Shown: positions 18,831 through 61,236 of the stretch, one piece after another
Numbering within the stretch: the stretch's first letter is position 1
Layout of the letters: the number at the start of each line of letters is the position of its first letter
Sequence record: NC_054908.1
DNA from: Escherichia phage vB_EcoM_DalCa
Length of the DNA: 64,000 nt
Reading direction: 5' to 3' (one strand)
The notes under the pieces: model-generated
What the model was told of the DNA's origin: nothing
Database searches by the model: none
What the model saw: the letters and a program-made list of their open reading frames with translations, nothing else
Program-made: the position numbers and the translations under genes

Positions 18831-20258
18831 CTAAAATTTTAATTCATTTGCCAAAGCATCTAACTGAGCTCGAGTGGATTCATTTCTTTGATAGCGATTC
18901 TGCTCAGCCTGAATCTGTTGTGAACCTGCTACTTCACTCACTTCAGTTGGAGTAGAATCTTGTTCAATTTCTACCCATTTTTGATTTCCTTTTTGAACAC
19001 CCATCAAAAACTTATTCCACTTATTCTTATCACCATATCGTGATTTGATTTGCTTAATAAGTTGTTGTTCAGCAGCTGCTAGCTCCTCGGTTTCAATGAC
19101 CGCAAGCATAAAATCAGCTGTTGCTGGAAGACCAGCAGATTCTGCAATATCGCTCATGTTAACATCGGAAGAGTCCCAAGCTTGTTTACCAACCTGTGCT
19201 GCAGTCCAAAGAACAGTTTCGGTTTCAACAGCCAGAGCACGCAATTCCTCTGCGATAGCTTTAACAGTTGTGTAACTATTTTCTGAATAAACTCTAATAC
19301 GGCAAGATTTACAAATACCTAGATAGTCGACAATAATGATTGTTGGAACAAAATTCTTCTTGAGCTTTAATTCATTTAAAAGTGATCGAAATGTATTAGC
19401 GTCTGCTCCACCAGTAGGATATTGCTTAACGATTAAACGACCAAGGGTAGATTTCTCGCGCCATTTTTCCATTTTTCCTTTATACTCAGCGTAAGAAATA
19501 TGCCCGTCATCAATGTCATCAAGAGAAACATCAAGCATATTAGCATCAATACGCTTAGCACAGACTTCTTCTGCCATTTCCATGGAAATGTAAAGAACAT
19601 TGTGTCCGAGCTGCAAATAATCTGCTGCCAATGAACACAATCCTAATGACTTACCGACGTTAACGCCAGCCATTAAAACGTTCAGTGTTCCAGTCTCAGC
19701 TCCGCCTTTAGTAATTTTGTTTAGAATTCTGAGTTTAAATGGAACCTTACGAGCTTTATTCATATAAGATAGCCAACGTGCTTCGTAGTCATCCATCCAA
19801 TCATGACCAACGTAACTATCAAATGAAATAGATAATGCCTGGCGCATGATGTCAGGAATAGCACCAACATCTGGCATTTTCTTATTTCGTTTTTCCGGAG
19901 GAAGCTCAGCATTAGTTTGAATTTCGATTATTTTAGACGTAGCATTAAACATCGCCCTTTGCTGAACATATTTTTCTGTTTCTTTTATTAACCAACTGTG
20001 GTCTTCCGGAGAATCAGCCAGTTTTGAAATAAGTGTTTTTACACCAGAATATTCTGTTTCAGTAAATGAACTATTTTCTAATGCAACATTTAACGCATTA
20101 ATAGATGGAACGCTATGATACTCATTAACATGAGATTTAATTAATTTGAATGTATTTTTAGCTGGACCACTTTCAAAATATTCTGAATCCATATATGGCC
20201 AAACTTTTGAAAAATAAGCTTGATCAAATATGAGATGAGAAAGAATAATTTCTACCAC
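18831..20258 (-). CDS. 41: replicative DNA helicase gp41 (DnaB-like)
   Basis: 475 aa as T4 gp41; Walker A GVNVGKS. Confidence 0.9.
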   Translation of the reverse strand: MVEIILSHLIFDQAYFSKVWPYMDSEYFESGPAKNTFKLIKSHVNEYHSVPSINALNVALENSSFTETEYSGVKTLISKLADSPEDHSWLIKETEKYVQQRAMFNATSKIIEIQTNAELPPEKRNKKMPDVGAIPDIMRQALSISFDSYVGHDWMDDYEARWLSYMNKARKVPFKLRILNKITKGGAETGTLNVLMAGVNVGKSLGLCSLAADYLQLGHNVLYISMEMAEEVCAKRIDANMLDVSLDDIDDGHISYAEYKGKMEKWREKSTLGRLIVKQYPTGGADANTFRSLLNELKLKKNFVPTIIIVDYLGICKSCRIRVYSENSYTTVKAIAEELRALAVETETVLWTAAQVGKQAWDSSDVNMSDIAESAGLPATADFMLAVIETEELAAAEQQLIKQIKSRYGDKNKWNKFLMGVQKGNQKWVEIEQDSTPTEVSEVAGSQQIQAEQNRYQRNESTRAQLDALANELKF

Positions 20259-40494: not shown

Positions 40495-40965
40495 TTAATC
40501 ATGTTTCCACACCCCATCGGTATTTGACCAAAGTCGCTGATTATCTGATCCTCGCCACAGCTTTTTAGTCGGAAGATTTTTCTCATACTTCCCATCAATA
40601 ATAACATCAACATATTTAAGCATTTCTAGTTGTTTAATATCTTCAAACTTATATCCTGTCCACAACCAAATGCTTTTATTGGGATAAAGATTTTTAATAG
40701 TTTGAACCACAGAGTGAATCACGTCTCTGTTATCAGGATAAAGAGGGTCACCTCCGGTTATAGTTAATCCTTCTATATAATCATTATTCAAACATTCAAT
40801 TAATTGTTCTAGTGTTTCACCAGTGAATGGAATACCATTTCTAGCATTCCATGTTGATTTATTATAACACCCTTCGCATTTATGCAAACAACCTGTAACG
40901 AAAAGAACGGTCCTGCAGCCAGGACCATTAACAAAATCGCAAGGATAAAATCTATCATAATTCAT
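40495..40965 (-). CDS. nrdG: anaerobic ribonucleotide reductase activase NrdG (radical SAM)
   Basis: 156 aa as T4 NrdG; CxxxCxxC cluster GCLHKCEGCYN. Confidence 0.85.
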   Translation of the reverse strand: MNYDRFYPCDFVNGPGCRTVLFVTGCLHKCEGCYNKSTWNARNGIPFTGETLEQLIECLNNDYIEGLTITGGDPLYPDNRDVIHSVVQTIKNLYPNKSIWLWTGYKFEDIKQLEMLKYVDVIIDGKYEKNLPTKKLWRGSDNQRLWSNTDGVWKHD

Positions 40966-42779
40966 TGGTGTTTAACCCTATGCATGATTTCTTTATTTTT
41001 GCCGAGATTAAATCCGCGTTCGTTCGGATTTCCCAAATAACCACATGTTCTTCTTATTGTGTTCATCTTTTTAGGATCAGTTTCTCCACAAATAGAACAA
41101 ACAAATCCGTTTTCAGTAGGAGTCATTTCATGGGTACTTCCACATGTAAAACATTTATCTACTGGCATATTAACACCAAAATAATCTAAATGTTGTGCAG
41201 CATAATCCCATACGGCCTCAAGACCCTTTAAGTTATTTTTCATATCAGGAAGTTCAACATAAGAAATGTGGCCGCCTGTCGCAATGAAATGATATGGTGC
41301 TTCGCGAGAAATCTTTTCAAACGGAGTAATATTTTCTTCTACTGAAACATGGAAACTGTTAGTGTACCAACCTTTATCGGTAACATCCTTTACACTTCCA
41401 TATTTTTCGGTATCAAGTTTACAGAAGCGATAACAAAGGTTTTCAGCAGGAGTAGAATACAAACTAAAAGCAAACCCAGTTCTTTCAGTCCACTGTTTAA
41501 GACGAGCATTCATTTTAGTTAAAATTTCCTGTCCAATATCACGACCGACAAGAATATTCAATTCGTGAATACCAATGTATCCTAGAGACACTGAACTTCT
41601 GCCATTTTTAAATAACTCAATTATATCGTCATCAGGTTTAAGACGAACCCCGAATGCACCTTCTTGGTAAAGAATAGGAGCAACAGTCGCTTTAACTCCT
41701 TTTAAGGAACTAATTCTACACATCAAAGCTTCAAAACATAAATCCATTCGCTCATTGAACAATTCAGTAAATTTCTGTTCATTGAACTGTGTTCCAATAT
41801 AAGAATCTAATGCGATACGAGGAAGATTCAGTGTTACAACACCGAGATTATTACGTCCATCAAGAATTTCATTGCCAGTCGAATCTTTCCATACGCTCAA
41901 GAAACTACGACAACCCATTGGAGAAACAGGAATAGATGAGCCGGTGATAGCTTTATTGTTCTTAGCCGAAATGATGTCAGGATACATTCTTTTGCTTGCG
42001 CACTCTAAAGCAAGCTGCTTAATATCATAGTTCGGGTCGTCTTTATAAAGATTAACACCTTCTTCAACGAACATAACAAGTTTAGGAAAAATAGGAGTTA
42101 TCCCATCACGACCGAGACCTTTAATACGATTTTTCAGAATTGCTTTCTGAATCATTCGTTCAGTCCAGTCAGTTCCCGTACCAAATGTAATTGTTACAAA
42201 AGGAGTCTGTCCGTTTGAACTAAAGAGAGTATTTACTTCATATTCATAAGCTTGGAATGCATCGTATACGTCTTTTTCTGTTTTAGATTGAGCATAATTC
42301 AACGCATCAGCGATTTGCCATTTTTCTGCATCTTCAATATGTTTTGCATAGGTGCGTTTAACATAAGGAGAAAGTACTTCATCTACATTCGCAAAAGTCG
42401 TTCCGCCATATTGATGGGAAGCAACCTGTGCAGTAATTTGTGCCATAATTGCAGTAGCAACACCGATTGATTTAGGAGTTTCAATCTGCGCATTACCGAG
42501 CTTAAATCCGTTCTCAAGCATTCCTTTTAAATCTACTAAACAGCAATTAGTAAATGGAAGAGCAGGGGAATAATCAATATCATGGAAATGAATAATTCCG
42601 CTTTCATGCGCTTTCATAATAAAAGACGGGACCATATTTTTGGCAATGTGCTTAGACACAATACCAGCCATAAGGTCCCGTTGAGTTGGAAAAACACGAG
42701 AATCTTTATTAGCATTCTCGTTTAAAAGGTCTTTATTAGTTTTATGAATCAATCCTTCAATTTCTTTTTCAATTGTCAT
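40962..42779 (-). CDS. nrdD: anaerobic ribonucleoside-triphosphate reductase NrdD
   Basis: 605 aa continuous ORF; C-terminal glycyl-radical motif RRTCGYLG and Cys-rich zinc site. Confidence 0.9.
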   Translation of the reverse strand: MTIEKEIEGLIHKTNKDLLNENANKDSRVFPTQRDLMAGIVSKHIAKNMVPSFIMKAHESGIIHFHDIDYSPALPFTNCCLVDLKGMLENGFKLGNAQIETPKSIGVATAIMAQITAQVASHQYGGTTFANVDEVLSPYVKRTYAKHIEDAEKWQIADALNYAQSKTEKDVYDAFQAYEYEVNTLFSSNGQTPFVTITFGTGTDWTERMIQKAILKNRIKGLGRDGITPIFPKLVMFVEEGVNLYKDDPNYDIKQLALECASKRMYPDIISAKNNKAITGSSIPVSPMGCRSFLSVWKDSTGNEILDGRNNLGVVTLNLPRIALDSYIGTQFNEQKFTELFNERMDLCFEALMCRISSLKGVKATVAPILYQEGAFGVRLKPDDDIIELFKNGRSSVSLGYIGIHELNILVGRDIGQEILTKMNARLKQWTERTGFAFSLYSTPAENLCYRFCKLDTEKYGSVKDVTDKGWYTNSFHVSVEENITPFEKISREAPYHFIATGGHISYVELPDMKNNLKGLEAVWDYAAQHLDYFGVNMPVDKCFTCGSTHEMTPTENGFVCSICGETDPKKMNTIRRTCGYLGNPNERGFNLGKNKEIMHRVKHQ

Positions 42780-43795: not shown

Positions 43796-43900
43796 TTAAG
43801 TCATTTATCGTTGGTTCATTATATACTGTTTCTTCATCAGTGTAAACCGGTTCTTCCGGCTCTGGCTCTACAGTTTCCCATCTAGCCGCCCACCAAGGTT

Positions 43901-44221
43901 TTATAGCGTAATCCATTCTCGTACTATCTGAGTTACTACACGTTCACGGGGCTCGACTAGTTCAACAGTCGGAACTGCATAATACCAGTCAGAATGATAA
44001 GAACCTGACCGAGATTCATTTACCGCTACATGTACATTATGTTTTGGACTAAAGTAAACACACTGACGATATTGGCATTTACCATCTTGCACCCAGTCTT
44101 CTATTTCGATAGGTTTAAGATAGTCGGAAAAATCGAAATCATAGTTTTCCGAAAATGCATCATGGTCTTCAATAATTTCGCTCAGAACTGCATCAACATC
44201 TAATTTATTTTCAATAGTCAT
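43901..44221 (-). CDS. hypothetical protein
   Basis: 106 aa ORF. Confidence 0.45.
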   Translation of the reverse strand: MTIENKLDVDAVLSEIIEDHDAFSENYDFDFSDYLKPIEIEDWVQDGKCQYRQCVYFSPKHNVHVAVNESRSGSYHSDWYYAVPTVELVEPRERVVTQIVREWITL

Positions 44222-60115: not shown

Positions 60116-60394
60116 TTATTCTTTAAATCTAATCAATTTATTCATAGACTTTGAAACTTCTGCACGAACCTCATGTAGATTTTTGAGCTGTTCAAGACGC
60201 TGCTCATAGTAAGCAATTTCATCTTCTTCGAGACAGTCCTGTGAATCTTCTTTAAGATAACGTGCATAGTCCTGGAAAGCGTTACGAACTACTTCCTGGA
60301 AGTCATCAAGACTTTGAATTTTCTTAGGAGCAACAGATACACGACGAGGGGCAGTATAATACTCATAACCAAACCCTGCGCTTAATTGAGCCAT
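60116..60394 (-). CDS. hypothetical protein
   Basis: ORF-track ORF to 60436; internal Met start avoids overlap. Confidence 0.45.
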
Positions 60395-60660
60395 TAGTAT
60401 TTTTCCTCTAGTTGGAACACAGCACGACAAGCCCACATACTGGCTTCTTTGAGTTTCATTTTAGCAATAGTTAACTGATCGAGGCTTTCGGCGTAATTCT
60501 TCGCGAGTTCATCATCTTCACAGCTATCAAATGCTTCCCAGAATTCATCATATAAAGCATCAAAGATAAGCCCTAAACGAACTTCAGCATCTTTGATAGC
60601 ATTCACTTTACTGATTTTATCGTCAGTATGTGGTTTATAACCTTTAATGTCTTCAATCAT
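60394..60660 (-). CDS. hypothetical protein
   Basis: 88 aa ORF. Confidence 0.45.
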
Positions 60661-60874
60661 ATTTTACTTCCTCACCTGTTCCCAAATCATATTCAACTAA
60701 ACGAATAGGTTCATGAATGCCATATCCTTGAACAGAAATTTCTGTCGTAGGATAAATTCCATTAATATCACCCATGTTCCATGCTTCGTTAAATTGCTGT
60801 TCGCCTGAATTACTAAACCACTCGGCGAAAGCATTTAGCACATCTTCAGAACCTTCAATAATTATCTTTGCCAT
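60653..60874 (-). CDS. hypothetical protein
   Basis: 73 aa ORF. Confidence 0.45.
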   Translation of the reverse strand: MAKIIIEGSEDVLNAFAEWFSNSGEQQFNEAWNMGDINGIYPTTEISVQGYGIHEPIRLVEYDLGTGEEVKYD

Positions 60875-61236
60875 TACAAACTCTCGGTGAAGGTACGAGC
60901 GATAACGTCGCGCTGCTGTTCCGGAGTCAGAGAGTTAAAGCGAACTGCATAACCGGATACACGGATGGTCAGCTGCGGATATTTTTCCGGATGCTTAACT
61001 GCATCTTCCAGAGTTTCACGACGCAGAACGTTAACGTTCAGGTGTTGACCACCTTCAATTTTAACTGTAGGCTGTTGCTCAATTTCAATTTCACGGGCAT
61101 GCAAACCATAGAAAATTTCTGGGTCTACAAAAGAGTCCTCTTTAAAGGTTTTAGAGACAATAATTCGTGCTTGAATACCATCTTCAAAATAAATAGTACC
61201 TTTATGTGTGCCTTCAAGAATTTGATATGCTTTCAT
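60874..61236 (-). CDS. autonomous glycyl radical cofactor (GrcA/YfiD-like; T4 Y06I-type)
   Basis: 120 aa; C-terminal glycyl radical motif [29 protein letters not shown]; 3' half visibly GC-richer than surroundings. Confidence 0.8.

Follow-up and report, generated by a model that had tools for sequence, protein, structure and literature searches.

Part of the vs.6 gene of Escherichia phage vB_EcoM_DalCa is identical to host grcA, probably through repeated host-to-phage gene conversion

The DNA analysed here, called the window throughout, is a 64,000-nt stretch of the genome of Escherichia phage vB_EcoM_DalCa (DalCa; NC_054908.1), and the subject of this study is one small open reading frame (ORF) within it, vs.6, which codes for a homologue of the E. 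coli glycyl-radical protein GrcA (also named YfiD). Our results show that this ORF is the T-even gene vs.6 and the orthologue of T4 Y06I, and that the gene was already known and is not new, as a first-pass annotation of the sequence had recognised when it named the T4 homologue. The product is similar over its full length to PHROG 1209 (residues 1-120 of 121 model positions, E 5.7e-63) and differs from T4 Y06I at 2 of 120 residues (Q54P and R73H). In the denV-regB region the gene is flanked by vs.7 and vs.5, and the order denV, vs.8, vs.7, vs.6, vs.5, vs.4, vs.3, regB, vs.1 agrees with the annotation of T4, RB69 and e11/2. At the DNA level vs.6 is 100% identical to the copies in Pinarejo and REP3, 99.2% to that of T2 and 93.4% to vs.6 of RB69. 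Inspection of the upstream sequence found its ATG preceded by GAGG at a distance of 5 nt, and its stop codon shares bases with the start of vs.5 (TAATG).

The vs.6 product is a small stand-alone protein with a C-terminal glycyl-radical domain and an RVSGY loop. Pfam Gly_radical (PF01228) matches residues 60-101 (E 2.5e-18), and the top solved structure is that of E. coli YfiD/GrcA (PDB 6OWR, E 9.3e-42), which pairs residues 22-120 of the phage protein with YfiD 28-127. The second structural match is to the last 63 residues of pyruvate formate-lyase (PFL; PDB 1H16 residues 697-759). Gly95 of the phage protein is the counterpart of PFL Gly734, the radical-bearing residue of that enzyme (PMC8683613), and it aligns with E. 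coli GrcA Gly102, as numbered from the alignment offset. PFL proper (PflB/TdcE), an enzyme of ~760 residues with a Cys418/Cys419 active site, was rejected as an identity for the product because only the last 63-65 PFL residues are matched (positions 680-744 of the PFL model TIGR01255). The label 'pyruvate formate-lyase' found on vs.6 in several phage records is a misnomer, and annotators should be warned that many phage records call the gene either that, which is wrong, or 'hypothetical protein', which is uninformative. Nolan et al. (2006) had noted the Pfam Gly_radical match of vs.6 and guessed at a role in nucleotide metabolism.

Oxygen cleaves PFL at the glycyl radical on Gly734, and both YfiD and T4 Y06I take up the radical from the PFL-activating enzyme (PFL-AE), bind the cleaved enzyme and restore its activity; this spare-part function of Y06I was shown in vitro (Wagner et al. 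2001, as reported in PMC8683613). In YfiD, residues 61-127 make up the structured domain, which folds like PFL 693-759, while residues 1-60 are disordered, yet aid binding and radical installation (PMC8683613). By analogy with the work on T4 Y06I, the window protein probably acts as a glycyl-radical spare part for host PFL. Host PFL-AE (PflA) would activate the vs.6 protein, which would replace the C-terminal glycyl-radical domain of the O2-cleaved host enzyme, and the conversion of pyruvate to acetyl-CoA and formate would be kept running in infected cells at low oxygen.

Alignment with E. coli grcA divides vs.6 into a phage-type 5' part, a host-identical core and a phage-type tail (Table 1). 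Residues 61-120 are identical to E. coli GrcA residues 68-127 at 60 of 60 positions, and the DNA beneath them (gene nt 179-363, 60874..61058) is 97.3% identical to E. coli grcA nt 200-384 (E 2e-81), a match that every one of the 5426 complete E. coli genomes contains. The five differences within this stretch all fall in the last five sense codons, one synonymous difference in each, and in the core none of ~42 synonymous and none of 123 nonsynonymous sites is changed. The 5' part, by contrast, is 48.7% identical to E. coli grcA in nucleotides where it can be aligned, with saturated synonymous sites (proportion of synonymous differences, pS, 0.70), and its translation is 35% identical to GrcA over 40 residues (E 5e-6). 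A maximum chi-square analysis places the breakpoint after gene nt 178 (61058/61059; chi2 100.7, permutation p <= 2e-4). The 3' edge is likewise supported, with 5 differences in the 13 coding nt of the tail against 0 in the 169 of the core (Fisher p 8e-7), and a table of variable sites shows that the codon states of the tail differ between T-even phages. The vs.6 tract is an internal conversion tract with two edges, and it does not reach the stop codon. In host terms the core runs from the third base of codon 67 through codon 122 of GrcA and covers nearly the whole structured domain.

Table 1. Location of vs.6, of its three segments and of the NrdD and presumed NrdG genes in the window
Feature	Coordinates	Strand	Basis or description
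vs.6 (T4 Y06I) coding sequence	60874..61236	-	ORF list; ATG to TAA, 120 aa plus stop
Phage-type 5' part (gene nt 1-178, aa 1-59)	61059..61236	-	AT-rich; distant homologue of GrcA residues 28-66
Host-identical core (gene nt 179-347, third base of I60 to T115)	60890..61058	-	169/169 against E. coli grcA nt 200-368
Phage-type tail (gene nt 348-363, F116-T-E-S-L120 plus stop)	60874..60889	-	Synonymous differences; 3' edge of tract
Gly95 codon, RVSGY motif (aa 92-96)	60952..60954	-	Computed position; aligned to 6OWR and PFL 697-759
NrdD, class III anaerobic ribonucleotide reductase (605 aa, one continuous ORF)	40962..42779	-	Pfam NRDD 1.3e-171, Gly_radical 1.3e-25
Presumed NrdG activase	40495..40965	-	Position beside nrdD and cysteine-rich N-terminus alone

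Base composition changes along with divergence. Gene nt 1-178 have a GC content of 0.337 and nt 179-347 one of 0.497, where the window as a whole averages 0.344 (sd 0.039 for 185-nt segments); GC at third codon positions (GC3) rises from 0.20 in the 5' half of the gene to 0.46 in the 3' half. No 185-nt stretch of the 64 kb is richer in GC than those over the 3' part of vs.6, and when the whole window was compared by megablast with 5,426 E. coli genomes the vs.6 tract was the sole matching stretch. Most of what the first-pass annotation had claimed for the gene held up: the match of the C-terminal ~60 residues to E. coli GrcA, the GC shift in the 3' half, the diverged 5' half of phage-like composition and a boundary at about 61060, which is within 2 bases of the calculated breakpoint. 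A uniform divergence along the gene is excluded by the alignment. The same annotation had carried the GC-rich, host-like stretch down to 60874, and this has to be corrected, since the last 13 coding bases are of phage type.

The donor was sought among the grcA genes of 80 bacterial species, one genome per species, each compared with the core of the window gene. Identity was complete for E. coli (169/169), followed by Escherichia sp. MOD1-EC7003 (167/169) and, as the best of other genera, Citrobacter amalonaticus and Trabulsiella (155/169 each), with ~82-88% for Salmonella, Klebsiella, Enterobacter, Yersinia and Serratia. Many of the 80 species encode the same 60 residues, yet their DNA differs, and genera with an identical protein differ at 8-17% of the tract bases. 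Since the protein is identical in many genera and the DNA matches only that of E. coli, the signal sits at synonymous sites and is not a by-product of protein conservation. This E. coli-specific synonymous identity also led us to reject a chance GC-rich patch explained by composition alone. E. coli pflB, the only secondary match of the tract in E. coli, was rejected as donor because its identity is only 80.6%, against 100% for grcA. In all 5426 E. coli genomes the tract sits within a full grcA, which lies between ung and eamB in the one locus inspected, and the identities among bacterial grcA genes track bacterial relatedness. The vs.6 mosaic is a real host-derived recombination patch; grcA is the donor, and the transfer went from the host to the phage.

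The patch is shared by many phages of E. coli. A search with E. coli grcA matched 751 phage records, of which 637 were at >=95% identity over the alignment; this group consists of Tequatrovirus and Mosigvirus, and nearly all of its members among the matches listed begin at grcA nt 200, that is, at the same 5' edge. Carriers of the tract include T4 (98.4% to E. coli grcA nt 200-384), T2, RB69, RB27 and Tequatroviruses isolated on Yersinia and Shigella. The first-pass suggestion of a recent recombination with host grcA therefore stands in one part and falls in another: the patch is host-derived and carries no synonymous change in its core, but with ~637 records it is not a recent event private to DalCa.

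Comparison of the window with RB69, a Mosigvirus, gave 74% identity for vs.7, 72.5% for vs.5, 73% for vs.4 and 83% for vs.8, and within vs.6 itself 89.9% for the 5' part and 98.8% for the core. Against another Mosigvirus (L089), the window gene has synonymous differences at 12 of 36.7 sites in the 5' part and at 0 of 42 in the core (Fisher p 4e-5), and the cores of both phages have the E. coli sequence. Judged from these comparisons, the phage lineages are far older than the tract they share. In a table of 11 T-even copies of vs.6, the core variants are for the most part private to one phage, each a change from the E. coli sequence. Nine distinct variants were seen in the phage cores, and two of these (192 A>G and 219 T>C) are also the only tract polymorphisms among the three E. 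coli alleles compared; the E. coli carriers are an O157:H7 strain and strain HS30-1, and further genomes listed have the same alleles. The tail is itself a mosaic across phages, with all four combinations present at the adjacent sites 357/358, and in OES_C-2 it is E. coli-like save at one site. These patterns make several events within the E. coli phages likely, but not proven.

Single members of this group show features of their own. In T4 vs.6 (L165:1322-1685) a CGT codon of the host-type core has become CAT, which changes Arg73 to His (phage numbering); Arg stands at this position in the ten other tabulated T-even copies and in all bacterial GrcA sequences compared. Position 219, the third base adjacent to this change, is variable in three phages and in E. 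coli. The Tequatroviruses isolated on Yersinia carry an E. coli-type tract, at 96.8-97.3% identity.

A parallel to the E. coli patch was found in phages of Klebsiella. With nt 202-369 of K. pneumoniae grcA, 106 phage records matched at 95-98.2%, and almost all of them are ~166-kb Jiaodavirus phages of Klebsiella. The K. pneumoniae reference for this comparison was a chromosome filed as a plasmid in PLSDB; the grcA of a Klebsiella sp. metagenome-assembled genome (L026), when used as reference, gave 90-92% only and understated the Klebsiella match. In the four Jiaodavirus genes examined (Nispero, PSE-D1, KPV15 and PhiKR8) the 5' half is of phage type, with 73% nucleotide identity to the 5' half of the window gene, and the junction falls at the same base. 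Past the junction, 159-165 of 169 nt agree with K. pneumoniae, against 148-150 of 169 with E. coli, and GC rises from 0.365 in the 5' half to 0.54-0.58 in the tract. The proteins have both of the residues that distinguish Klebsiella GrcA (LLDAVEH vs LEDAVKH), and the tail codons are again of phage type (ACA GAG GCA TTA). At least two independent donor species, E. coli and K. pneumoniae, have thus been shown at the same position of the gene.

PSE-D1 (L172) is a Jiaodavirus labelled as a Salmonella phage, and its tract is of K. pneumoniae type (164/169); the tract type follows the phage lineage and not the isolation host. In KPV15 (NC_055715.1, L170:1322-1683) vs.6 is annotated as two coding sequences owing to a frameshift in the 5' half, and the K. 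pneumoniae-type tract is intact (165/169). The split is either a sequencing error or the mark of a truncated gene that encodes little beyond the radical domain. Several entries of PLSDB, among them CP125156.1 (5.37 Mb), NZ_OL790696.1 and NZ_CP141089.1, are whole chromosomes or large chromosomal pieces labelled as plasmids.

Outside these genera the DNA match is lower. The genes of RB16 and RB43, which are E. coli phages, and of the Klebsiella phage KP15 encode 55-56 of 56 residues of their host's domain, but their DNA is only 81-84% identical (in RB16, 84% with all 56 residues the same). They appear to be older conversion events that have since drifted toward phage codon usage. The GrcA-like genes of CC31/PG7, of T5-like phages, of Aeromonas phages and of jumbo phages are diverged.

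We consider it probable that vs.6 is an old phage homologue of grcA whose domain segment has been overwritten by host grcA through homologous recombination, and this more than once. The gene would have been a full-length homologue from early on, and its nt 179-347 would have been replaced during infection, when phage DNA underwent gene conversion with the host chromosome at a point where the conserved domain keeps enough similarity to host grcA at the DNA level for recombination. Once installed, the tract would offer 170 bp of perfect homology, which would ease further conversion and allow the segment to be reset to the allele of the current host. Its 5' edge would be a homology cliff, with ~49% identity upstream and pairing impossible beyond it. 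The tail would keep its old phage states because homology ends at the stop codon and the last codons are seldom converted. In this way the phage would retain its own version of the disordered half, together with a host-identical domain that is sure to work, a property that would matter after host shifts. We infer both the recombination mechanism and the selective reason, which would be an exact fit to host PFL and PFL-AE. Going further, we give somewhat better than even credence to the idea that host-to-phage conversion has a permanent hotspot in vs.6 of virulent T4-type phages, where a segment of ~170 bp would be reset time after time to the allele of the strain or species on which the phage grows.

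Several points weigh against repeated conversion or narrow its reach. It is read from sequence comparison and not from experiment, and the complete phage genes inspected are few (~12 from T-even phages, 4 from Jiaodavirus). One converted allele that spread from phage to phage could account for some of the identity between genera. The overlap of phage and E. coli variants at positions 192 and 219 could have come about by recurrent third-position mutation, with an estimated chance of ~3e-4 when any base change is counted and of ~0.02 when only third-position transitions are. The E. coli phages RB16, RB43, RB49 and T5 have grcA homologues without a recent patch (73-84% identity), and therefore the process is not universal. 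A Salmonella-type tract was found in no phage, the best match to Salmonella grcA being <=88%. Finally, the vs.6 protein scores 154.9 bits on NCBIfam TIGR04365 (E 1.2e-45, model positions 25-126), under the curated equivalog cut-off of 170, whereas E. coli GrcA reaches 233.9 bits; the phage protein falls short because its N-terminal half is diverged, and 'phage GrcA homologue' is a better name for it than plain GrcA.

The same data could be explained with little help from the host, by one or two conversions only, one from E. coli and one from Klebsiella, followed by spread of the segment, or of the whole of vs.6, between T-even phages that infect the same cell. T-even phages recombine freely, and vs.6 as a whole is closer between the window and RB69 (89.9% in the 5' part) than its flanks are (72-83%), which could reflect exchange between phages. 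All four combinations at sites 357/358 are also what is expected of recombination among phage alleles, and GAG/AGT-type tail states are common to all T-even copies, to varying extent. However, the contrast between genera of 0/42 synonymous differences in the core and 12/36.7 in the adjacent 5' part means that such spread must have moved the core alone. The phage variants, moreover, radiate from the E. coli sequence and form no nested phage clades, two of them match segregating E. coli alleles, and at least two donor species would be required all the same. We regard this account, with the host as a rare donor, as rather unlikely.

Two other explanations have far less in their favour. A single ancient acquisition in the ancestor of the T-even phages, with identity held by purifying selection alone ever since, would fit the near invariance of the encoded domain over Enterobacteriaceae and many phages and the shared 5' junction in all phages examined. 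Selection on the protein leaves synonymous sites free, though, as seen in the differences between genera with an identical protein and in RB16. The phage tract matches E. coli specifically, and the flanking genes are 17-28% diverged between the two phage genera that share it, all of which makes the single acquisition very improbable. The identity of 97-100% is in principle silent on direction, so that one could imagine the phage as the source and E. coli as the recipient, or a spurious similarity created, for instance, by host reads in an assembly, with nothing specific to favour either. Against both stands a tract that is host-like in GC and GC3 and continuous with the rest of grcA in every E. 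coli genome searched; the ung-grcA-eamB locus and bacterial sequences that follow relatedness speak against transfer into E. coli, and the mosaic is in frame and recurs in >600 phage genomes that were sequenced independently, T4, T2 and RB69 among them. We give these last two possibilities almost no weight, and repeated conversion from the host remains our preferred reading.

Set beside its nearest relatives, the window gene is like T4 Y06I in its neighbours and in its mosaic, as expected of an orthologue, and the two differ in their tails, which have 2 differences from E. coli in T4 and 5 in the window copy, and at residue 73, where the window copy has the wild-type Arg. E. coli GrcA (6OWR) is likewise a small stand-alone protein, and its C-terminal 60 residues, including the RVSGY loop, and 169 nt of DNA are identical to those of the window gene. 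The window protein differs from it in being phage-encoded, with an N-terminal half that is 35% identical and 7 residues shorter and a 5' half of the gene that is AT-rich. The GrcA-like genes of RB16/RB43, KP15, CC31/PG7 and the T5-like phages have the same architecture, a variable N-terminal part and a conserved glycyl-radical domain, but their DNA reaches only 73-84% identity with the bacterial grcA genes compared and has in part taken on phage codon usage; a host patch, if they ever had one, is old.

The closest known process is that of the cyanophage genes psbA and psbD, for which intragenic recombination between host and phage, with patchy G+C and supported exchange of segments, has been described (Zeidner et al. 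2005; Sullivan et al. 2006, PMC1484495). Like these, vs.6 is a host-derived metabolic gene with patchy G+C on a T4-like phage, and it shows the abrupt, supported shift in divergence and composition and the identifiable donor of a psbA-type mosaic. Unlike in psbA and psbD, donor, direction and both edges are unambiguous in vs.6, since a named host species matches the patch at 100%. A further difference is that the patch coincides with a structural domain boundary and that the same segment has been replaced from two host genera. The conversion in vs.6 is a known kind of process, but a cleaner case of it. No prior description of the nucleotide-level mosaic was found in the literature searched, which excluded the T4 genome review, the YfiD NMR paper and the original Y06I paper.

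In vs.6, nature provides a case of unusual clarity in which homologous recombination has brought host DNA into phages that are strictly lytic and degrade the DNA of their host. Provided that conversion recurs, the PFL spare part would be kept adapted to the host by copying and not by mutation and selection, the tract could be used as a marker of the usual host of a phage lineage, and T4 together with a marked grcA would make a simple assay of host-to-phage gene flow. Should vs.6 in addition be a hotspot, the spare part would stay matched to host PFL and PFL-AE and the segment would be a readable record of recent host history; degraded host chromosomal DNA would then be expected to recombine regularly into the lytic phage genome wherever ~170 bp of homology exist.

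A second glycyl-radical enzyme of the window, NrdD, is not part of the mosaic (Table 1). Its gene appears to be without an intron, being one ORF with no group I intron found by Rfam in the window. Formate is the reductant of class III reductases, and the cell obtains it from PFL. Preservation of PFL could possibly also feed phage deoxynucleotide synthesis at low oxygen through NrdD.

Around vs.6, a scan for sigma-70 promoters and terminators gave 10 promoter-like sites, against 9.9 expected, and Rfam found no RNA family anywhere in the 64-kb window. The next GC-richest 185-nt stretches after the vs.6 tract are at ~19060..19260 and ~43846..44030 (GC 0.48-0.49) and have no E. coli similarity by megablast; the former falls in an ORF of 475 residues (18831..20258, minus strand). 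Two genes downstream of vs.6, the vs.4 ORF (60394..60660, minus strand, 88 aa) carries a Pfam Acb2/Tad1 hairpin domain (E 3.2e-18). Acb2 and Tad1, the namesakes of this domain family, are phage proteins that serve as anti-defence nucleotide sponges.

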